The notes under the pieces are model-generated. The model had not been told where the DNA came from and made no database searches. It saw nothing but the letters and a program-made list of their open reading frames with translations. Below, piece by piece: positions 13,240-63,990 of a stretch of 64,000 nucleotides of DNA. The position numbers were made by a program, and so were the translations under genes. Source of the stretch: Minisyncoccia bacterium (GTDB lineage: Bacteria > Patescibacteriota > Minisyncoccia > Phycocordibacterales > Phycocordibacteraceae); the NCBI GenBank assembly GCA_038228545.1, contig JBBRPE010000003.1, positions 442 through 64,441 of the forward strand. The letters are read 5' to 3'. Every line of letters begins with the position of its first letter. The stretch's first letter is position 1.

Positions 13240-13281
13240 ACTATCATCATCTTGTGACGACCGTCACAAGATGATGATAGT
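13240..13281. repeat. Near-perfect 20-bp inverted repeat (stem-loop)
   Basis: actatcatcatcttgtgacg AC cgtcacaagatgatgatagt, a 20-bp perfect stem with a minimal loop. Intergenic, between the two minus-strand genes 13357.. and ..13134. Confidence 0.75.
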
Positions 13282-13356: not shown

Positions 13357-13929
13357 CTAGTTGCCCTTCTTGAGAGCCTCGAGGTCACTAAGAAGTTTCT
13401 GGACATCGTTCGATAGCTGCTCGAGCAGTTCTTTTTCGTCACGCACTTTCTTTTCCGTACGATCCTTACGTTCTTTGCGTTCCTTCTTTTCCGTTACTTC
13501 TTTTTCTTTGACCTCCTGGGCCTCTTCCTTTTCTTCATCAGACATCTCTTCGACGTCTTCCTGAATTTCATCGATGTCCTCAGAGATTTCCTCGATGTCT
13601 TCCTGAATGTCTTCGACGTCTTCGCCAAGTTCCTCTACGTCTTCCTGAATTTCCTCGATATCTTCCTCGACTTCACGAAGCTGAGCGGTGTTGCGATTCA
13701 CTGTAATTTGAATGAAAAGCGCGAGATAAATAGCCTCAAGCGAGACTATCGTCGTAAGCACCAAGAGCATGTTCTGCCACTCTACGAGCCCAAATGCGGA
13801 CAAGGCGAACGACACGATAAAAAGTATCGTATGCACGAAGAGCGACGTAACGGAGCCAATGGCTTCAATCGCCCGCTCAATGATGGACTTGTTGAGTGGG
13901 GCTTTCATTAGTCGCACCCTAGCCCGCAA
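13357..13929 (-). CDS. DUF1003-like membrane protein with acidic tandem-repeat coiled-coil tail
   Basis: N-terminal 2-TM region (ILFIVSFALSAFGLVEW...LFIQITVNRN) typical of DUF1003. The C-terminus contains about seven 7-aa repeats, EDIEEIQ / EDVEELG. The underlying ~21-nt DNA repeats are visible at 13560-13690. Confidence 0.7.
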   Translation of the reverse strand: MRARVRLMKAPLNKSIIERAIEAIGSVTSLFVHTILFIVSFALSAFGLVEWQNMLLVLTTIVSLEAIYLALFIQITVNRNTAQLREVEEDIEEIQEDVEELGEDVEDIQEDIEEISEDIDEIQEDVEEMSDEEKEEAQEVKEKEVTEKKERKERKDRTEKKVRDEKELLEQLSNDVQKLLSDLEALKKGN

Positions 13930-17031: not shown

Positions 17032-17580
17032 TCAGGACGGATAGAAAATGCCGATGAAAGATAGGACTATTAATGCTAGCCCAACGAGCATTAATACTAT
17101 ATCCCACACAAAGAATTTCTTCTGCGGAACGTACGAAGAATCGATGTGTTTGTTGTATCGATTGCATATGCTCTGCATTTTTACAATAGAAACTACAGAG
17201 AGAAAACTTATAAGCCAGAGGAGGTTTGCAATTCCTTTCGTTGCCGGCGTCGTGCTTTGCATTCGGGCTGAGATACTGCCGATGAAAGTTAGGGCAATCC
17301 ACAGACCCGACCATACATCCACATATGACTTTGGACTTTGAGTGAGTGCGTCTGTCTTTTCGGCAATAGTTTTAAACAGTGCTGATACATAAAAATAAGC
17401 GAAAAAAGCACGCCAGAAAGGCTTAATTTCTAGATTGTCCATTTCGGCGACAATCTTCCAATTCCGGTACTGCCAGTACAATTCGTAAAAGCCAAGCGTT
17501 AATATTCCCAGAACAATTATTTTAGTATTGGATACAGAAAAAAATTCTTGCTTCTTAGCTTGCGAGCTGGATACTTCCAT
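17032..17580 (-). CDS. Hypothetical membrane protein (DUF4234-like)
   Basis: 182 aa with 4 TM helices, YELYWQYRNW motif. Confidence 0.55.
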   Translation of the reverse strand: MEVSSSQAKKQEFFSVSNTKIIVLGILTLGFYELYWQYRNWKIVAEMDNLEIKPFWRAFFAYFYVSALFKTIAEKTDALTQSPKSYVDVWSGLWIALTFIGSISARMQSTTPATKGIANLLWLISFLSVVSIVKMQSICNRYNKHIDSSYVPQKKFFVWDIVLMLVGLALIVLSFIGIFYPS

Positions 17581-17865
17581 TTATTCATAAGAACATACGT
17601 ATGAATAATCGGAAAGTGGGAGGAGTGGGAAACGCTTTATATCTGGGACTTTGTTTCGGTTATATATCGGACTGCGATTACGCTTTCGGTCACAAATAAT
17701 TCCCTGCAGGAATTTCCGCGACCCCGACTCGGCCACTGGCTCCATACTTCGAATTCTTACAGGACCGTGATTACACTTTCGGTCAAGCGCTCATTCGTCG
17801 CCGTCGCTCCTCATTCCGCCTGACCACGATTTCGCGACCAGCCGTGCTCGGCAGGTGCCCGCGAA

Positions 17866-17960
17866 ATCCTTCGAATCCTGTACGGTACGCACAAAATATA
17901 AGAAAACCCTGCTCACGCAGGGATTTCGTTATTTTGTGGACCGTACAAGATTCTCGACTT
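17866..17960. repeat. Palindromic tRNA-Ala-derived unit A: inverted degenerate copies of the tRNA-Ala 3' half flanking a GC hairpin
   Basis: The plus-sense fragment cttcgaatcctgtacggtacgcac (17868-17891) matches the tRNA-Ala T-arm and acceptor 3' strand. The central hairpin is ccctgc-tcac-gcaggg with A/T runs. The minus-sense fragment tggaccgtacaagattc (17937-17953) matches the same tRNA segment. Confidence 0.7.
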
Positions 17961-18008
17961 ACAGTCGCTGTCCACTCGTTGGATTTTGCTCGATGACTCA
18001 CAAAACGC

Positions 18009-18088
18009 TCAACGAGTTTCTTCGAATCCTGACGCAAGCTCCGCTTGCTTACGGTCCACGACAAAAGCCCCTTGCGGGGCTTTATGTG
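18009..18088. repeat. Palindromic tRNA-Ala-derived unit B (second tandem copy, fused to the functional tRNA-Ala gene)
   Basis: The plus-sense fragment ttcgaatcctg[acgcaagctccgcttgct]tacggtccacg carries an inserted 6-bp hairpin. It is followed by the gcccc-ttgc-ggggc hairpin and then the genuine tRNA-Ala 3' end in the opposite orientation. Same architecture as unit A. Confidence 0.7.
18061..18082 (-). terminator. Rho-independent terminator of tRNA-Ala
   Basis: On the minus strand: GCCCC-GCAA-GGGGC UUUUGU, directly 3' of the tRNA. Confidence 0.7.
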
Positions 18089-18161
18089 TGGACCGTACAG
18101 GATTCGAACCTGCGACATCTTCATTGCAAATGAAGCGCTCTACCAACTGAGCTAACGGCCC
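18089..18161 (-). tRNA. tRNA-Ala (anticodon UGC)
   Basis: Minus-strand sequence GGGCCGUUAGCUCAGUUGGUAGAGCGCUUCAUUUGCAAUGAAGAUGUCGCAGGUUCGAAUCCUGUACGGUCCA. Full cloverleaf, G3:U70 identity pair, A73, T-loop UUCGAAU. CCA is not encoded. Confidence 0.93.
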
Positions 18162-46484: not shown

Positions 46485-46838
46485 TCAGTGCTTCAGTACG
46501 AGAAGGTGCAAATGAAAATGTGGCGGAATAGTACGTGTACGGTGCGTTGATTCAATAAAGTTATCGTACTTCCCCTGTAGTTCGTCAGAATACTTTATCT
46601 GCATAAACTCCTCTCGCTCTTCGTCTGTGAGCTCGCTTTCCGTGGCATGACGCAGAGGCAGCAACATGTTGTGTTCTGCCGCTATGAGGTCATACGGAAA
46701 CAGATTTGAAACGATTTTCCAGTGCACAAAGGTTTTCAGCGATTCACGGTTACAAAGCGCACAAGCGGTTTTGAATTCGTTAGTCTGCATGACCTCTCGG
46801 TAACGCTGACTCAATTCAGTGGAGCGGAAAACAGGCAT
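46485..46838 (-). CDS. HIT-family (histidine triad) protein
   Basis: C-terminal HFHLHLL (H-phi-H-phi-H-phi-phi) and an N-terminal CALC zinc-ribbon-like pair, 117 aa. Confidence 0.55.
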   Translation of the reverse strand: MPVFRSTELSQRYREVMQTNEFKTACALCNRESLKTFVHWKIVSNLFPYDLIAAEHNMLLPLRHATESELTDEEREEFMQIKYSDELQGKYDNFIESTHRTRTIPPHFHLHLLVLKH

Positions 46839-46861
46839 AGCAAAGGTGATATGGGTAAAGT

Positions 46862-47338
46862 CTACAGTTTTTTTGATAATCTGAAGTACGTAAGGGTGAA
46901 TGGATATCCTGGGATAAGACGCACCTGTAACTTGCCAAGATATTCTCCAGGTGCGACTTCGACGATTTCGTCGAGTACTGGACGGAGCCAGAGCGGGTTC
47001 GTTAGACTATTGTACTCAATTTGAACGACGAGGCGATTATCGTGTACACCAGGACCGATAGAAAGTGTAAACGGATACTTTTCAATGAATGTTCCGGATG
47101 CAGTCGAAAATAGATTAATCCCGGAGTGAGTTGCTGCATTGAATTTCTTGCCAAGCCAGGAAACTTTTGGACCGGTTACCGTGCCTGCATATGTACCATT
47201 TGGCAAAGTGTCTGTTTCAAGTGCATGGGTGAAGCTTGTTTGATCCTGCGTCCACAGCAATTGATTCGTTCGTACTAGTAGTAGTACTAGTACAGTGACG
47301 AGCACCAGGGCAATGATTTTGAGGGCTAGCAGTAGCAT
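46862..47338 (-). CDS. Hypothetical membrane-anchored protein
   Basis: N-terminal TM (LLLALKIIALVLVTVLVLLLV), 158 aa. Confidence 0.5.
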   Translation of the reverse strand: MLLLALKIIALVLVTVLVLLLVRTNQLLWTQDQTSFTHALETDTLPNGTYAGTVTGPKVSWLGKKFNAATHSGINLFSTASGTFIEKYPFTLSIGPGVHDNRLVVQIEYNSLTNPLWLRPVLDEIVEVAPGEYLGKLQVRLIPGYPFTLTYFRLSKKL

Positions 47339-47388
47339 GCAGGTAGCGTAGCACGTAGCATTTGACTGGAACCGAGTAAGAAACAGCC

Positions 47389-47428
47389 GGCAGGGAACCC
47401 CGCCGGCTGTTTCTTTTCTAGTTTCGCC
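47389..47428. terminator. Bidirectional terminator hairpin
   Basis: cagccggc-agggaacccc-gccggctg followed by TTTCTTTTC. It is downstream of the minus-strand gene ending at 47441. Confidence 0.6.
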
Positions 47429-47440
47429 CGTAACGTATAC

Positions 47441-47779
47441 CTACAGGGGCTTCACCTCCATAACGTCGATGGTTGCACCCGGAATATCCAGATGTGGGTG
47501 ATTTTTGAACATCTCCGCCACTTCTTCGACTGAATTTCCCGCAACATAGGAAGAGAGCATAAGTCCGTTGTTAGTATCCGTAACTCCATCCGCTCGTACG
47601 CGTTTGGTGGCACCCAGACCGATAGTATTCTGTACCGAATCCTTATGGCTAGCGAGCCAGGTATCCCAATCTCCTTTCATCTTGGCTTCTGCTACCTTTC
47701 GTTCTTCTTCAGGCTTCGCCATCCATTCTTTCAGACCTTCGACAGGCATTGCGTATAGTACGGTGAAAAATTTCATATA
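47441..47779 (-). CDS. Hypothetical protein
   Basis: Internal Met start (MKFFTVLYAMPVEGLKEW...) of ORF 47441..47872, 112 aa. Confidence 0.45.
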   Translation of the reverse strand, partial: YMKFFTVLYAMPVEGLKEWMAKPEEERKVAEAKMKGDWDTWLASHKDSVQNTIGLGATKRVRADGVTDTNNGLMLSSYVAGNSVEEVAEMFKNHPHLDIPGATIDVMEVKPL

Positions 47780-47835
47780 AGTATGTCTAGATATAATGCT
47801 GATATGGTACTGCATCCCACATGAGGTTGTGGTGA

Positions 47836-48225
47836 TTACGGGTGTCGTTTGCCGGCCAGGAGCATCACACACGCTTTTTCCACTCTTTTTGCGCGCGTTT
47901 CCGTGTCACTAGCAGCTCCAATCCAATCAGCAAAATCCCTATGTTGGTCCGGTGTGAGCTTCTTCCAATGCGCTTTTGCCTTTGGGAGCTCACCTATGGC
48001 TTTGTACAGATTCATGGGAACAATCGCATAACAGCACGGGCGTTTCTTTCCGCTTGCAAGCCTCGATGGAATGCTATCGAGGCGCCGCTTCCGGGTCTCC
48101 GGTTGCTTAGCCGACTCTATCCAACTCACAAAATCACGATGTGCGATTGACGTTAGCGCATTCCACTGCGCCTTTGCTTTTGCAGTGGTGAGTGATTTGC
48201 GAATCTCCGTTAGAGTTTTTTCCAT
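47836..48225 (-). CDS. YdeI/OmpD-associated-family-like protein with internal tandem duplication
   Basis: Two copies of KAKAxWxxLTxxxxRDFxxWIxxAxxxETRxxR...LAxGKxxP (residues ~15-62 and ~82-129). Confidence 0.5.
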   Translation of the reverse strand: MEKTLTEIRKSLTTAKAKAQWNALTSIAHRDFVSWIESAKQPETRKRRLDSIPSRLASGKKRPCCYAIVPMNLYKAIGELPKAKAHWKKLTPDQHRDFADWIGAASDTETRAKRVEKACVMLLAGKRHP

Positions 48226-48236
48226 AGGATTAGGTA

Positions 48237-49241
48237 TTAATTAATTTCAATATCTACATACGTCACCTGCGGAAACTCCTCTCGTATACTTTTTTCAATC
48301 TCAGCAATACGGTTACCGACAAGACGCGGAATACGGTCGGTGGTACGGAACATGAGCTTCGTGAATTCTTTGAAATCGTCCTTGATATTATCGAATTCGT
48401 CCTGGAGGTCGCCCGCCTCGTATATCTCCTCGTAGAGCGGAGAACCATTCCATTCAACGGCGGCGAAGATTCGATACTTATTCAAATCAACAGCTGCAGA
48501 CTTGAATTCAATAACCTTTTCAACACATGAATCTTTTTCAAGAGCCTCAATAAGCTCGTCCACAATATCTTCATGCAAGGGCATGCCGATAATATATTTG
48601 TGATTCTTTATGATGAGTAGAATTGCCAGGAACCCAAGTATGAGACCCACGGCTATACCACCCAGTGAGTCGTACACTGCATTTCCGGTTATGTAGGTAA
48701 GCCACTGGGCAATAAGAGCAAACAGAACACCAAGCACGGCGACACTGTCTTCATAGACGACAGCAAGAAGTACCGGGTCGCCATCGGAAAAAAGTTCGAC
48801 GGTGAGATTTCCTCCATTTCGCAATTCGTTCACCGCAAGAAACAACGTCATACCCTCTATGAGGAGCGCTACCAAAAGTACGAGAACGCTCAGTGTGCTG
48901 AATACCGGCGCTTGGTGGCTTACCTGGAGCAAGGATTCGATAGAGTGGTAGAGAGAAATACCCGCGCCAATGAATAACACACCGCACGCGGACACGAGCG
49001 ACCAAAAGAAGCGCTCAATACCATAACCGTAGCCATGAATGTCGTCGGCGGGTCGCTTAGAGCGCTGAATTCCTATGAGGAGGAGCGACTGATTGAGTGT
49101 GTCTGCAATACTATGGACGCTTTCCGCAAACATACTCGCCGAGCCGGTAGCGATTGCCACGACGGTTTTTATGATGGTTATAAATACATTGCCACTAAGA
49201 GCGGCAATGACCGATACTTTTCCTTGGGCGTGTTTGCTCAC
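48237..49241 (-). CDS. Cation diffusion facilitator family metal efflux transporter
   Basis: 6 TM helices with SVHSIADTLNQ and HGYGYGIERF motifs, plus a C-terminal cytoplasmic domain. 334 aa. Confidence 0.9.
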   Translation of the reverse strand: MSKHAQGKVSVIAALSGNVFITIIKTVVAIATGSASMFAESVHSIADTLNQSLLLIGIQRSKRPADDIHGYGYGIERFFWSLVSACGVLFIGAGISLYHSIESLLQVSHQAPVFSTLSVLVLLVALLIEGMTLFLAVNELRNGGNLTVELFSDGDPVLLAVVYEDSVAVLGVLFALIAQWLTYITGNAVYDSLGGIAVGLILGFLAILLIIKNHKYIIGMPLHEDIVDELIEALEKDSCVEKVIEFKSAAVDLNKYRIFAAVEWNGSPLYEEIYEAGDLQDEFDNIKDDFKEFTKLMFRTTDRIPRLVGNRIAEIEKSIREEFPQVTYVDIEIN

Positions 49242-49301
49242 GTACGAAGAGTGTATCAGAAATACGTTGATGTCTGAGACGTGATGAAATGGAGACGGGC
49301 G

Positions 49302-49835
49302 CTAATCAACAACATCGTACCCGAGCTTTCGCGCAACATCCTCTTCCTCAAGAACTTCTCCGGTAAGCGGGTCGTGGCACATATATTCTTTATCCATTGC
49401 AAAATAGGTCGGTGTCTTGCTGTGTTCACCACCTGCGGCCTTCCAGCATGTACTGAGCCATGCATAGAGCATCTCGGACTGTCGAGTACCGAAATCCATT
49501 GCTTCCTTATCTGTGAACTCAACACCGTCAAATGTTTTGGTCTCGTATTCGTCTAGTTCGGAAATAAAGCTTGTTTCGGAACTACTTTCCACATCGTAGT
49601 CAGCGCCCAACTTTTTCTTTCCATCCTCGTCTGTAACTTTGAAGCTATTGTAAACGAGACAGAAATTTTGATCCGCGAATAACTCAAGTGTGCGATATAT
49701 TTCACCTTCTTTCGGCTCCATCTCCACATACGTGCGCATTTTCTCTACGGCCGCTCCCTCAGCACGTTCCAATATCCCAGTAACTTCACCGATAATCTTG
49801 TCCACGCGTTCAATTCCGTTTGGTATAGCTTCCAT
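49302..49835 (-). CDS. Hypothetical acidic protein
   Basis: 177 aa, soluble and acidic. It lies just outside the last att-like repeat of the tRNA-Gln array. Confidence 0.5.
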   Translation of the reverse strand: MEAIPNGIERVDKIIGEVTGILERAEGAAVEKMRTYVEMEPKEGEIYRTLELFADQNFCLVYNSFKVTDEDGKKKLGADYDVESSSETSFISELDEYETKTFDGVEFTDKEAMDFGTRQSEMLYAWLSTCWKAAGGEHSKTPTYFAMDKEYMCHDPLTGEVLEEEDVARKLGYDVVD

Positions 49836-49886
49836 ATGTATAGATTATGCCATGAAATGGATATGCGTCAGAATCTAGATACATCT

Positions 49887-49915
49887 GGCAGACTGGGACG
49901 ATGTTGGAACCTATG
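49887..49915 (-). repeat. att-like repeat 3: degenerate copy of the tRNA-Gln 3' end
   Basis: Minus-strand sequence TAGGTTCCAACATCGTCCCAGTCTGCCAG compared with tRNA-Gln CTAGGTTCGATCCCTAGTCTCCCAGCA. It shares TAGGTTC and CCC(T)AGTCT(C)CCAG. Located directly after the stop of ORF 49911..50534. Confidence 0.6.
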
Positions 49916-50534
49916 CTACTCCCATGTATCCATCCTTGAGTTCAGATTGAAATTTCTCTTCTTCAAAAGTTTGAGGATCGATACTCCAACTTGATGCAAC
50001 TTTTAATACATCTGACTCATTGGGGAAATCCTCCCAATTCTCCATTGGGGTGGAAAGATAAACAAGGTCTTTTTCAATAGAAGTTGGTTCGCCAACGTTT
50101 CGATAGACCTCACCGCTTTCACCTAAGTAATAAAAACTTCTTTTAAGTTCCCCATTTATTGCACGCGCCCATATGTTCAGTTCAACAACCCGATGATTCG
50201 CAAAGAATTGAGCCTCCCCAAATTCCTTACTTAACACGCATATCTTATCTTCAATATCGGTAAGATCTTCTCTTAAAGAGAGAGCGAGCGCCTGGCCCAC
50301 CACAAATACCCAACCTTCTACTTGAGGAGTAATAAAGATTTCTTTTCCAGCTCCGTTAGCGTATGTAGCTGAAACACCTTCACGCCAGGGTGTCTCTCGA
50401 AGCTTTCGTATACCCAGAATAGCGTCAATTTTTTCATAGTCCGCTGGTGCCTTAATGGCATACCATGCAGTTTTATATGACCAAGCAGCGAACAACGAAT
50501 CAGGTTGAGTAGGTTTCTTAGCAAAGAATTTCAT
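49911..50534 (-). CDS. Hypothetical protein (cassette gene C, AT-rich)
   Basis: 207 aa, AT-rich codon usage unlike the flanking genes, immunity-protein-like small soluble protein. No family assigned. Confidence 0.55.
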   Translation of the reverse strand: MKFFAKKPTQPDSLFAAWSYKTAWYAIKAPADYEKIDAILGIRKLRETPWREGVSATYANGAGKEIFITPQVEGWVFVVGQALALSLREDLTDIEDKICVLSKEFGEAQFFANHRVVELNIWARAINGELKRSFYYLGESGEVYRNVGEPTSIEKDLVYLSTPMENWEDFPNESDVLKVASSWSIDPQTFEEEKFQSELKDGYMGVA

Positions 50535-50560
50535 ATATTTGAATGTATGACATACAGATT

Positions 50561-50590
50561 TTAGTGCTGGCAGTCTGGAACTACGTTGTA
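50561..50590 (-). repeat. att-like repeat 2: degenerate copy of the tRNA-Gln 3' end
   Basis: Minus-strand AGGTTACAACGTAGTTCCAGACTGCCAGCA ends in CCAGCA like the tRNA-Gln 3' terminus (…UCCCAGCA). Located directly after the stop of ORF 50596..51072. Confidence 0.6.
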
Positions 50591-50595
50591 ACCTT

Positions 50596-51072
50596 CTAAT
50601 TAATCAACAGCGAGGTGTAAGTCTCCCACTTTGGGTCACACTTCATCATAAACTGTAGTTGATGCTCTTCAAATTTATCTTGAATGGTTTTGACTTTCGA
50701 CTCAAAATATTCCGGCTTCCACTCTGGCGCGTAGAAAACAAATTCTCTCATACCACCAGTAGTGATAGACATAACATAGAGGAGTCCGTCTTTTGAAAGA
50801 ATCGCGTCAAGCTCATCTTCAATCAAGTTTAGTTCTTGTAACTCACTGCCTTGGGGTAAACCAGCTTCAGTAGGATTTTTGAGCGGAATTACAACACCAA
50901 TCTGAAATGGAAATCTTTCAGAGCCAACCATATTTGAAACTTGTCGTGCGCGTATGAATATTGCTTTGCCTGCGTATTCACCTCGTAACACCTTCCATTC
51001 ATCAGGCATTGGAGTTGGGTTTGAATCATTCTTCTTTGAGAAGTTGAGCATAATGTCTAAATTATCATACAC
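50596..51072 (-). CDS. Hypothetical acidic protein (cassette gene B, AT-rich)
   Basis: 158 aa. Faint resemblance to small acidic immunity/regulator-type proteins, unverified. Confidence 0.55.
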   Translation of the reverse strand: MYDNLDIMLNFSKKNDSNPTPMPDEWKVLRGEYAGKAIFIRARQVSNMVGSERFPFQIGVVIPLKNPTEAGLPQGSELQELNLIEDELDAILSKDGLLYVMSITTGGMREFVFYAPEWKPEYFESKVKTIQDKFEEHQLQFMMKCDPKWETYTSLLIN

Positions 51073-51084
51073 AAATCGAGCTGA

Positions 51085-51112
51085 CTGTTTGGGTCGATGT
51101 TGGAACTTTTTT
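51085..51112 (-). repeat. att-like repeat 1: degenerate copy of the tRNA-Gln 3' end
   Basis: Minus-strand GTTCCAACATCGACCCAAACAGTCAGC, the same motif family as repeats 2 and 3. Located directly after the stop of ORF 51115..51357. Confidence 0.5.
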
Positions 51113-51114
51113 AC

Positions 51115-51357
51115 TTACCACCATGATGTAAAAATTGCACTCAAAAAATTCTCAGCCACAAGCTTCCTGAAGCGAGAACTAACTACCAATCCGAATACGC
51201 CTATTACGACAATGACTCCAGAGACCATAACAATTGGCTGCGCCCCTAGATTTCTATAGAACAAATATGAAAAGGCACTCAGCACAAAAGCTGCAATGGA
51301 GATCAAGAACACAATTACAGGGATCGCTAACAGAATCTCTGAAATGAAGTTTTTCAT
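51115..51357 (-). CDS. Small 2-TM membrane protein (cassette gene A)
   Basis: 80 aa with two hydrophobic helices. It starts 19 nt after the truncated tRNA-Gln copy. Confidence 0.45.
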   Translation of the reverse strand: MKNFISEILLAIPVIVFLISIAAFVLSAFSYLFYRNLGAQPIVMVSGVIVVIGVFGLVVSSRFRKLVAENFLSAIFTSWW

Positions 51358-51375
51358 GTTTTTAGTATATATCAG

Positions 51376-51430
51376 TTGAGAGACTAGGGATCGAACCTAT
51401 ATTCACGGCTTCAAAGACCGCTGTCCTACT
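51376..51430 (-). pseudogene. 5'-truncated duplicate of tRNA-Gln (D-arm to 3' end, no acceptor 5' strand)
   Basis: Minus strand GUAGGACAGCGGUCUUUGAAGCCGUGAAUAUAGGUUCGAUCCCUAGUCUCUCAA is ~90% identical to positions 18-73 of the intact tRNA-Gln. The upstream sequence cannot pair with the 3' strand, so it is not a functional tRNA. Confidence 0.65.
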
Positions 51431-51470
51431 GGCAAGCGACTGAGCGAAGAATGGAATCTGTTCTGTTCAG

Positions 51471-51543
51471 TGCTGGGAGACTAGGGATCGAACCTAGATT
51501 CACGGCTTCAAAGGCCGCTGTCCTACCATTAGACGATCTCCCA
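51471..51543 (-). tRNA. tRNA-Gln (anticodon UUG)
   Basis: Minus strand UGGGAGAUCGUCUAAUGGUAGGACAGCGGCCUUUGAAGCCGUGAAUCUAGGUUCGAUCCCUAGUCUCCCAG(CA). Full cloverleaf with the U1:A72 and G73 Gln identity elements and anticodon loop CUUUGAA. Confidence 0.9.
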
Positions 51544-51675
51544 GCACTGGACGGAACAGGAACGGATTGCATTCTTCCGAGGGAGCGCTGCCAGCAAGCT
51601 CTGCTTACCACTCGCCGATCTCCCAATTTGTGAACCGCACGTTCTCACTTTGCCCGAAGTGGCTCTCCTCGGCAA

Positions 51676-63694: not shown

Positions 63695-63775
63695 TTGCCG
63701 GGGTGGTGGAATGGTATACACGGTGGATTCAAAACCCGCTGCCGCAAGGCTTGAGAGTTCGAGTCTCTCCCCCGG
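63695..63775 (+). tRNA. tRNA-Leu (anticodon CAA), class II with long variable arm
   Basis: GCCGGGGUGGUGGAAUGGUAUACACGGUGGAUUCAAAACCCGCUGCCGCAAGGCUUGAGAGUUCGAGUCUCUCCCCGGCA. Perfect 7-bp acceptor, A73, anticodon loop UUCAAAA, variable stem-loop GCC-GCAA-GGC, T-arm GAGAG/UUCGAGU/CUCUC. CCA is not encoded. Confidence 0.88.
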
Positions 63776-63796
63776 CACAGATTTAAGCGAAGCTAA

Positions 63797-63952
63797 AAGC
63801 TGGGCCGGGGAGTACCTGGCCTTCGCCAGGTACGTGAGAGACTCGAAAGCCGGAGCGATGTTCGGCGAGCACGCCGAACCGCGAGGCGGGACTGCGACCT
63901 AGGCGAGTGACGACGAGCCTAGAGTTGTAGTCGAGAATGTACTCATGTTCTC
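63797..63952 (+). ncRNA. Candidate structured RNA of unknown class with tRNA/tmRNA-like end pairing (5'-GGGGAG…CUCCCCCACCA-3')
   Basis: Three internal hairpins (GUACCUGGC-CUUC-GCCAGGUAC, GUUCGGCG-AGCA-CGCCGAAC, CUAGGC-N12-GCCUAG) enclosed by GGGGAG/CUCCCC pairing, then ACCA. It directly follows tRNA-Leu and is followed by an intrinsic terminator. Confidence 0.3.
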
Positions 63953-63963
63953 TCCCCCACCAC

Positions 63964-63990
63964 AAATTGAAAAGCCCTGGCGGTTTCCCG
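63964..63990 (+). terminator. Rho-independent terminator
   Basis: gccctggcgg-tttc-ccgccagggc (10-bp stem) followed by TTT at the window edge. Confidence 0.7.

Follow-up and report, generated by a model that had tools for sequence, protein, structure and literature searches.

Tandem tRNA-linked structured elements behind tRNA-Ala in a Minisyncoccia bacterium belong to a large family in Patescibacteria

The intergenic region behind the tRNA-Ala gene of a Minisyncoccia bacterium (Patescibacteriota; NCBI GenBank assembly GCA_038228545.1, contig JBBRPE010000003.1) is a tandem array of three members of a family of tRNA-linked structured elements, all in the sense of the tRNA strand. The array lies within a window of 64,000 nucleotides (contig positions 442 to 64,441), and all coordinates given without a locus name count from the first letter of this window. 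Elements of the family begin with a 5' arm that is antisense to the final 5-20 nt of the upstream tRNA, continue with a conserved core of ~100 nt, and end with a 3' arm that repeats the tRNA 3' end. The 3' arm is often followed by a copy of the tRNA's terminator. The family is large and is uncatalogued, being absent from Rfam. Judged by analogy with known repeats, its members are probably expressed as small RNAs by terminator read-through and trimmed by the enzymes that act on tRNA ends, a reading that we favour with some reserve.

The template of all arms at the Ala locus is the final ~20 nt of tRNA-Ala (18089-18108), and the units at this locus lie 31-330 nt past the tRNA on the same strand (Table 1). 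The 20-nt segment TTCGAATCCTGTACGGTCCA, which runs from the T-loop to the acceptor, occurs without mismatches at 18089-18108 on the minus strand and with two mismatches at 17870-17889 on the plus strand; none of these matches is expected in shuffled sequences. A further copy of the tRNA-Ala end, in the same orientation as the original, lies at 17935-17953, which is 152 nt away from 18087-18105 and shares 95% identity with it. A sequence-only reading of this DNA had described the tRNA, the sense and antisense copies of its end, and terminator-like GC hairpins. All of these are located where that reading placed them and exceed chance by a wide margin, as judged by shuffles and by fold z-scores.

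That reading also took two palindromes of ~95 nt, units A and B, to be the repeating units. Both fold far more stably than shuffled sequences (z = -9.8 and -9.0, respectively), and both contain GC hairpins followed by T runs (17907-17922 and 18067-18080). However, the palindromes are junctions between consecutive elements. Unit B is composed of the tRNA-Ala end, the trailer with its terminator hairpin T1, and the 5' arm of element 1, and its plus-sense copy of the tRNA end is interrupted by an 18-nt hairpin that leaves pieces at 18021-18031 and 18050-18058. When read on the minus strand, T1 has the sequence AAAGCCCC-GCAA-GGGGCUUUUGU, with its stem at 18067-18071 and 18076-18080. The second terminator, T2, forms the middle of unit A. 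The covarying cores, which had been treated as spacer, are the functional units. The region is non-coding, as was proposed, and the open reading frame (ORF) at 17783-18124, which had been rejected, has no Pfam match and is covered by the tRNA and the elements.

Element 1 sits between T1 and T2. Its 5' arm, UGGACCGUA (18058-18050), is followed by an inserted hairpin, GCAAGC-GGA-GCUUGC (18048-18034), and then by CAGGAUUCGAAG (18031-18020). The core consists of a single long hairpin and a small GAC-UGUAA-GUC hairpin, and the 3' arm is GAGAAUCUUGUACGGUCCA (17955-17937). The RNA of this element is predicted to adopt a closed, tRNA-like multi-branch fold (-49 kcal/mol, z = -4.7). The covariance model of the family, R1 (see below), does not match element 1, and the only homologue found for its core is the second unit of one related locus (L095).

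Element 2 carries a 5' arm, CGUACCGUACAGGAUUCGAA (17889-17870), and the helices P2, P3 with an AGCA loop, P4 with the loop GAGCGACGGCGA, and P5 (GUG-UAAU-CAC). Its 3' arm is shortened to UCCUGUA, and its P4 stem is partly broken, which suggests decay. In element 3, which is similar to the first unit of L095 and to L036, P3 and the 12-nt loop are shortened and both arms are degenerate, and the modules CGAGUCGGGGUCGCGG and GACCGAAAGCGUAAUCGC are retained. Elements 2 and 3 retain only ~7-nt remnants of the tRNA 3' end. Where they meet, the 3'-arm remnant UCCUGUA of element 2 is fused to a 5'-arm remnant of element 3, AGAAUUCGAAG. This is the stretch that the sequence-only reading regarded as a further degenerate copy of the tRNA segment; tRNA-end remnants are indeed present there, but as parts of a collapsed junction. 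The direct repeat GATTACRCTTTCGGTCA (17676-17692 and 17769-17785; expectation 0.03), which was reported alongside it, is likewise real. Its identity is different, however, in that it is the reverse complement of a conserved 3' module of the family, UGACCGAAAGYGUAAUC.

Table 1. Positions of the tRNA-linked elements and associated features in the 64,000-nt window.
Feature	Position	Strand	Evidence
tRNA-Ala(UGC)	18089..18161	-	ARAGORN; Rfam tRNA model 73.1 bits; CCA not encoded
tRNA trailer + terminator hairpin T1	18059..18088	-	sequence; fold z = -9.0
Element 1, rare core variant	17937..18058	-	3' arm 18/19 identical to tRNA end; fold
Second terminator T2, CCCUGC-GUGA-GCAGGG + UUUUCUUAUAUUUUG	17896..17936, stem 17922-17907	-	terminator scan; fold z = -9.8
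Element 2, full core	17759..17889	-	R1 match 17760-17880, 104 bits, E = 4e-30; alignment with relatives
Collapsed junction of elements 2/3	17747..17769	.	minus-strand sequence compared with intact junctions
Element 3, reduced core	17667..17758	-	R1 match 38.3 bits, E = 4e-11
Family member behind tRNA-Leu(CAA)	63804..63964	+	R1 match 63837-63953, 109 bits; fold z = -5.9

The Ala locus is also represented in an independent short-read assembly, where a contig of 1137 nt (L001; Logan SRR19962015) is identical to window positions 17560-18117 and stops within tRNA-Ala. The repeats apparently break assemblies at tRNAs. When an orthologous locus was sought by way of the NUDIX gene, the closest relatives were at most 53% identical and lacked synteny.

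A repeat scan of the whole window revealed that both of its other tRNAs, Leu and Gln, also bear local copies of their own ends. Behind tRNA-Leu(CAA) (63697-63778), an intact element with Leu-derived arms lies 26 nt downstream, a member of the family that had been overlooked. Its 5' arm, GCCGGGGAG, is an antisense copy of the tRNA-Leu 3' end that is split by an inserted hairpin (63813-63832) and resumes as UGAGAGACUCGAA. The core then follows, with a degenerate sense copy of the tRNA end further on as the 3' arm (UUCUCUCCCCCACCACA) and a terminator from 63971. Within the 64 kb, R1 matches only the 104-, 38- and 109-bit sites. Because the arms at each tRNA are made from the local tRNA, these observations argue against a dispersed element with fixed ends. 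Thus, the earlier suggestion of a small repeated element tied to tRNA is borne out, and the search for it elsewhere was positive (at least 67 copies found with R1). Its more specific form, a small element resembling a miniature inverted-repeat transposable element, fits poorly, since the ends are not fixed but copy the upstream tRNA and the 64-kb window has no copy away from a tRNA. A regulatory structure, the remaining suggestion, is possible.

Relatives of the array were collected by scanning species-representative genomes for the exact tRNA-Ala 3' end. This yielded 117 loci, mostly from metagenome-assembled genomes of Patescibacteria (Saccharibacteria, Paceibacterota, Kaiserbacteria). About 20 of the 117 have the same order of components on the strand of the tRNA: a terminator hairpin, GGGCCGUA, an optional hairpin, CAGGAUUCGAA, a conserved stretch of 100-130 nt, and UCCUGUACGGUCCA. 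An identical type of core is found in these loci behind tRNA-Val and tRNA-Pro, with arms that fit those tRNAs. R1 was built from 11 relatives and gave 39 matches at E <= 1 when applied to the window and 118 related loci; among the best 34 of these, 31 lie 26-82 nt after a tRNA on the same strand. A scan of metagenomes with the core motif added at least 120 loci, from which at least 44 R1 matches were obtained. At a threshold of E <= 1e-6, R1 recovers at least 67 copies from Patescibacteria genomes and metagenomes, and these were pooled in one alignment (n = 67). Tandem arrays also occur in L095, L101, L237 and L343. The family is common in Patescibacteria and spans phylum-level lineages. Searches of Rfam 15 with the window, with the related loci, and with the 510-nt region alone at E <= 10 returned no family other than tRNA and sub-threshold noise. 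No description of these elements in Patescibacteria or the candidate phyla radiation was found in the literature.

The conserved core folds into a multi-branch structure composed of P2, P3 with an AGCA loop, P4 with a GAGYGACGRCGA loop, and P5 (GYG-UAAU-CRC). Across the 67 copies, 93.6% of the predicted pair positions are paired, compared with 65.5% in shuffled alignments and 28-44% when the pairing partners are slid, and all 34 of the 34 pairs exhibit double-sided changes. The middle pair of the three-base-pair helix P2, for example, is seen as C-G, G-C, A-U and U-A. Fitting this alignment to R1 biases it toward the structure; even so, the difference from the controls is wide and is in line with an independent result: a MAFFT alignment of 12 copies analysed with RNAalifold gives 39 pairs, of which 31 have compensatory changes. 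The terminal helix formed by the 5' and 3' arms is 90.5% paired across the 67 copies, and the units in the window fold with closed ends. Noncanonical combinations in the internal helices total 57 for G.U and U.G and 15 for A.C and C.A. Such an excess of G.U over A.C implies that the fold belongs to the tRNA-sense strand, either as RNA or as single-stranded DNA.

The association with tRNAs is pervasive. A tRNA on the same strand lies within 400 nt upstream of 57 of the 67 copies, at a median gap of 57 nt, and several of the remaining 10 sit at contig ends. More than 20 anticodon kinds are represented, and the linked tRNAs include those for Ala, Val, Pro, Ser, Lys, Thr, Glu, Leu, Tyr, Cys, Arg, Phe, Trp, Gly and Asp. 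The arms fit the local tRNA. Their length ranges from ~5 nt, which covers only the acceptor tip, to ~20 nt, which reaches the T-loop; in the Leu-linked unit and most relatives, 10-19 nt of the 3' arm match the tRNA. One sequence, present in two loci (L313:697-811, the same as L329:1476-1590), is found behind the terminator of an rpsI-like gene whose ORF ends in ...RRAPQWSKR*. In its terminal helix, one U.G wobble keeps the pairing. The arms therefore need not come from a tRNA.

Some relatives depart from the usual arrangement. In L062 (7580-7930), an 'orphan' unit with Ala-type arms and its own terminator lies 5.8 kb from the tRNA-Ala of the contig, which has no element, and only a CTGTCCA remnant of a tRNA end is found upstream of it. 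In L031 (790-960), a core-less hairpin, GGAUGUACAGGAUUCGAACCGAUACGGUCCA, follows tRNA-Ala, in which the antisense and sense arms meet at the T-loop palindrome with nothing in between. This hairpin is either a precursor of the unit or a deletion derivative. A change of the antisense T-loop sequence AUUCGAA to AUGAGAA (GGAUGAGAA) is shared by 5' arms of several unrelated Patescibacteria units (L319, L018 and L299) and by E. coli RtT (L354). Either convergence or a remnant of shared ancestry could explain this motif.

Comparison of related loci reveals how filled and empty sites differ. The empty site of L078 matches the trailer that follows the element in L064. From this match, the filled state can be written as tRNA end and T1, antisense arm and core, then tRNA end and T2. 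In L303 (6900-7290), a near-identical ~60-nt segment of tRNA-Gly end and terminator is duplicated on both sides of one unit, and in L237, cores at different tRNAs on one contig are similar to each other. The L237 and L303 loci point to recent duplication or ongoing homogenisation.

The closest known counterparts are the tRNA-linked repeats of E. coli. Escherichia coli K-12 has 22 of these at 10 loci, with one to five at each; the last 18-19 bp of every copy, on its 3' side, duplicate the 3' terminus of the tRNA or rRNA that precedes it (PMC8144298). Such repeats have been known since 1978 (Egan & Landy 1978 and Rudd 1999, as cited in PMC8144298). Their origin is unexplained, as is their function, save for three of the 22 copies, RrA/B/F (PMC8144298). 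Each of these three is flanked by two terminators, arises through read-through of T1 followed by processing, and can bind both Hfq and CsrA in vitro; in the view of that study's authors, the repeated 3' end may direct processing (PMC8144298). At the tyrT-tyrV locus of E. coli, four RtT units (Rfam RF00391) are detected at 133-137 bits, three of them in tandem with a period of 178 nt. Their terminal helix, GGGGAAGGAU/AUCCUUCCCC, is formed by two copies of the tRNA-Tyr 3' end, one antisense and one sense.

The Patescibacteria family exhibits every architectural trait of the E. coli tRNA-linked repeats. In both systems, elements lie directly behind a tRNA (or rRNA) on the same strand in one to five tandem copies per locus, their 3' end repeats the last ~18-19 nt upstream, and an antisense 5' end completes a terminal helix. 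The core architecture is different, and the RtT model has no match in the window (E <= 10) or in eight related loci (E <= 1); conversely, R1 scores only 9.7 bits on RtT. Unlike RtT, the Patescibacteria family abuts the terminator hairpin to create long palindromes, has arms of 5-20 nt, sometimes carries an extra hairpin at the acceptor/T junction, and extends to more than 20 tRNA kinds and to phylum-level lineages. The antisense arm of E. coli RtT starts 59 nt from the tRNA with no hairpin between them, such that the feature common to both systems is the terminal helix rather than the palindrome. RrA, RrB and RrF, which lie at the ends of E. coli rrn operons, share the T1-element-T2 layout of element 1 and also repeat the end of an upstream stable RNA at their 3' ends. 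They differ in being linked to 5S rRNA and in having GGA motifs for CsrA.

The two arms of the Patescibacteria elements pair to form a terminal helix that imitates the stack of acceptor and T stems in a tRNA. The likenesses to the E. coli repeats suggest how the elements might operate. By analogy with RtT and RrA/B/F, transcription would proceed by read-through of T1 and terminate at T2. Because the ends of the element look like tRNA ends, the RNA may then be excised by tRNA-end enzymes, with RNase P acting on the 5' side and tRNA 3'-end nucleases on the other. The product would be a stable small RNA with conserved loops that bind a factor in trans. Arrays could grow by unequal recombination between the direct repeats of tRNA end and terminator. 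As to how a core reaches a new tRNA, one can guess that synthesis switches template twice, once at the terminator hairpin and once at the palindromic T-loop/T-arm, and also copies a donor core, in a manner similar to tandem inversion duplication. Alternatively, a folded single-strand recombination site might be used by a trans-acting recombinase.

A number of observations weigh against such an RNA product. T1 has the look of an efficient terminator, and no promoter-like site was detected. Elements 2 and 3 are visibly decayed. The hairpin that competes with the terminal helix, formed by the tRNA end, terminator and 5' arm, is very stable (z ~-9), and this palindrome could be the functional structure instead of the terminal helix. 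In the family as a whole, the 5' arm is matched to the tRNA end by 636 Watson-Crick pairs, 29 G.U pairs and 6 mismatches. Each arm diverges by ~3.5% from the tRNA end. Substitutions in 3' arms have no bias toward keeping the terminal helix paired (5 keep it and 6 break it); those in 5' arms are biased 13 to 3, but this result is dominated by one G3.U70 state that is common to related sequences. The near-perfect complementarity of the 5' arm and the absence of pairing bias in the 3' arm keep a reading at the level of DNA alive. The G.U excess is equally compatible with folded single-stranded DNA of the same strand. Syntenic loci of the Paceibacteria type have the unit behind tRNA-Ala in some cases and lack it in others. 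A perfect 137-nt tandem array of 2.3 units is found behind tRNA-Thr in L237 (6790-7240), and the arms behind the rpsI-like gene were copied from the last ~12 nt of its ORF. Presence/absence polymorphism, perfect arrays and the rpsI-like copy point to selfish spread at the DNA level.

The leading alternative is a mobile or recombinational DNA element in which the palindrome of tRNA end, hairpin and antisense arm is the active site. We consider this explanation unlikely overall but by no means negligible. Folded single-stranded DNA would rebuild a duplex copy of the target, and a recombinase encoded elsewhere would insert it at the tRNA 3' end, leaving a direct repeat and producing cassette-like arrays. 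In integron attC sites and the CTX-phi attP hairpin, a folded single strand rebuilds a duplex target copy in this manner. An enzyme-free variant would rely on two template switches at hairpins, as in tandem inversion duplication. The palindromes are almost perfect over 88-95 nt, a length that fits attC-type sites; no integrase was seen in the flanks. The Patescibacteria arrays further resemble attC and CTX-phi attP in having imperfect palindromes of ~60-140 nt between short cargo units, in being built up at one site, and in conserving the structure of one strand over its sequence. A segment of tRNA end and terminator borders the antisense arm and core on both sides, and its copies are near-identical in L303. 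Syntenic sites occur in empty and filled states, and tandem units can be identical, as in L237. The orphan copy 5.8 kb from a tRNA in L062, the copy behind a protein gene in L313, and the similar cores at different tRNAs of one L237 contig also speak for mobility, and a strand-specific G.T excess is also expected of folded single-stranded DNA.

Other evidence is difficult to reconcile with a mobile DNA element. No integrase, transposase, HUH or reverse transcriptase gene was found near any of the examined loci, which comprise the flanks in the window and those of relatives. When 568 flanking ORFs were clustered, only syntenic housekeeping genes such as those for LepA, RF, UvrC and YceG emerged. 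Neither an integron integrase nor an Xer context was found, and the present palindromes also differ from attC and attP in that their arms copy the target and their cargo is a structured core of 100 nt instead of genes. Among 114 viral contigs bearing the loop motif, 100 were scanned with R1, and none has an element at the motif site. An attachment site has no need of a core of 100 nt whose loops are invariant and whose stems covary fully. In RtT, the antisense arm lies 59 nt from the tRNA without a hairpin, leaving the terminal helix as the common feature. Moreover, each move of such an element would require that both arms be rewritten.

An RNA-level alternative dispenses with a small RNA product altogether. 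The elements could be purely cis-acting devices of tRNA operons, in which the antisense arm pairs with the 3' half of the tRNA in read-through transcripts. The resulting long duplex might serve as a fail-safe extension of the terminator or as an RNase III site for destroying or trimming 3'-extended tRNA. The duplex of tRNA end and 5' arm is the best conserved pairing and the most stable local fold, and elements sit between genes inside tRNA clusters. However, the core, the 3' arm, the second terminator and the tandem arrays are left unexplained by this mechanism; the E. coli RtT units have no adjoining hairpin, and many syntenic tRNAs manage without an element. We therefore regard it as improbable.

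The leading idea of the sequence-only reading was that the repeats are decayed attachment scars from successive integrative elements or prophages that target tRNA genes. Integration into tRNA genes classically leaves direct repeats of the 3' part of the tRNA, beginning in the T-loop, and the Ala locus has such repeats from the T-loop to the 3' end, as do attL/attR duplications. The tRNA-Gln gene of the window, too, is accompanied by a direct copy of 53 nt of its 3' part. These facts are outweighed by the interior of the repeats, which is a conserved, covarying core of 100 nt found in phylum-level lineages behind more than 20 tRNA kinds. The spacing of the repeats is only ~150 nt, and antisense copies are not a product of integration. 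Neither integrase nor phage genes were found at the examined loci here or in relatives, and megablast gave no match that would indicate a phage origin. The intervals between distant partial tRNA copies in relatives and the surroundings of tRNA-Gln are likewise devoid of integrases, and contain only MatE, NUDIX, trypsin-like, YceG, CBASS and methyltransferase genes. The scar explanation is thus largely refuted and very improbable.

Least credible of all is an aminoacylatable or transfer-messenger RNA (tmRNA)-like mimic of tRNA, whose terminal helix would be an alanine acceptor minihelix with a role in protein synthesis or in rescuing ribosomes. In its favour, GGGCCGUACAGGAUUCGAA at the 5' end is similar to the start of tmRNA, GGGG...GGAUUCGAC, and many Ala-linked copies have G3.U70 (GGGCCGU/ACGGUCC) in place of the exact complement. 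Element 1 also has the fold of a small tRNA, including D-like and T-arm-like hairpins. As in the tRNA-like domain of tmRNA, the acceptor helix is of the alanine type, its 5' strand is followed by a GGAUUCGA motif, and a structured insert separates the two acceptor strands. On the other side, most units have no T-arm, there is no tag ORF and no set of pseudoknots, the Ala-linked units of the window have A3-U70 or a mutated stem, the arms follow the upstream tRNA, and the core is also found behind Pro, Val, Leu, Ser, Lys and other tRNAs with arms of their own. A tmRNA proper, a candidate prompted by the GGGCCGUACAGGAUUCGAA start, was ruled out by ARAGORN, which found none in the window or 119 related sources, by the Rfam tmRNA models, which have no match at E <= 10, and by the occurrence behind non-Ala tRNAs.

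A small RNA made by read-through and trimmed at tRNA-like ends remains the explanation that we favour, and the family provides a much larger and more diverse set of the E. coli-type design, with more than 20 tRNA kinds, strong covariation, invariant loops and presence/absence polymorphism. It is also a comparative data set for a 45-year-old puzzle, from which it might be learned which pairings are selected, where the arms originate, and whether RNA or DNA is the active form. The targets are nearly always tRNAs and once a ribosomal-protein gene. With considerable doubt, one may speculate that tRNA-linked repeats are not an enterobacterial curiosity but a general self-propagating class, each member of which places a structured RNA after a gene that ends in a hairpin terminator and derives its two arms from the final 5-20 nt of that gene. 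This would imply templated insertion without an element-encoded enzyme, for instance through two template switches, one at the terminator hairpin and one at the T-arm hairpin, or through an RNA-mediated route. The product would mimic the top half of a tRNA and be accepted by tRNA-processing and perhaps CCA-adding or aminoacylation machinery. On a practical level, units of this type interrupt assemblies at tRNAs and give rise to spurious ORFs such as that at 17783-18124, and in the small genomes of symbionts they may be confused with att scars or with the edges of prophages.

The window contains further repeats. On either side of tRNA-Gln (51472-51543, minus strand) lie inverted repeats that lengthen its acceptor stem; they match over 23 nt at 91% identity, or over ~50 nt as judged by eye (51377-51640). 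Two pieces of a second tRNA-Gln copy enclose the gene, a 5' fragment (~51606-51627) and a 3' fragment of 53 nt that is 94% identical (51377-51429). The arrangement looks as if an intact tRNA-Gln with inverted-repeat flanks resides inside a disrupted tRNA-Gln, and R1 has no match in this region. Downstream of tRNA-Gln, a low-GC stretch (0.41-0.47) at 46800-51360 carries small genes of accessory type, for OmdA, cation efflux, DUF695, DUF6928-like and hypothetical proteins, and no integrase; this stretch may be an old island. Elsewhere, tandem repeats of 21 nt (TCYTCGAYGTCTTCCTGAATKTC-like) with five in-register copies are located directly upstream of the YceG gene (13547-13674). A perfect 20-nt inverted repeat with a 2-nt spacer (ACTATCATCATCTTGTGACG / CGTCACAAGATGATGATAGT; 13240-13281) lies near these tandem repeats and is also upstream of the YceG gene.

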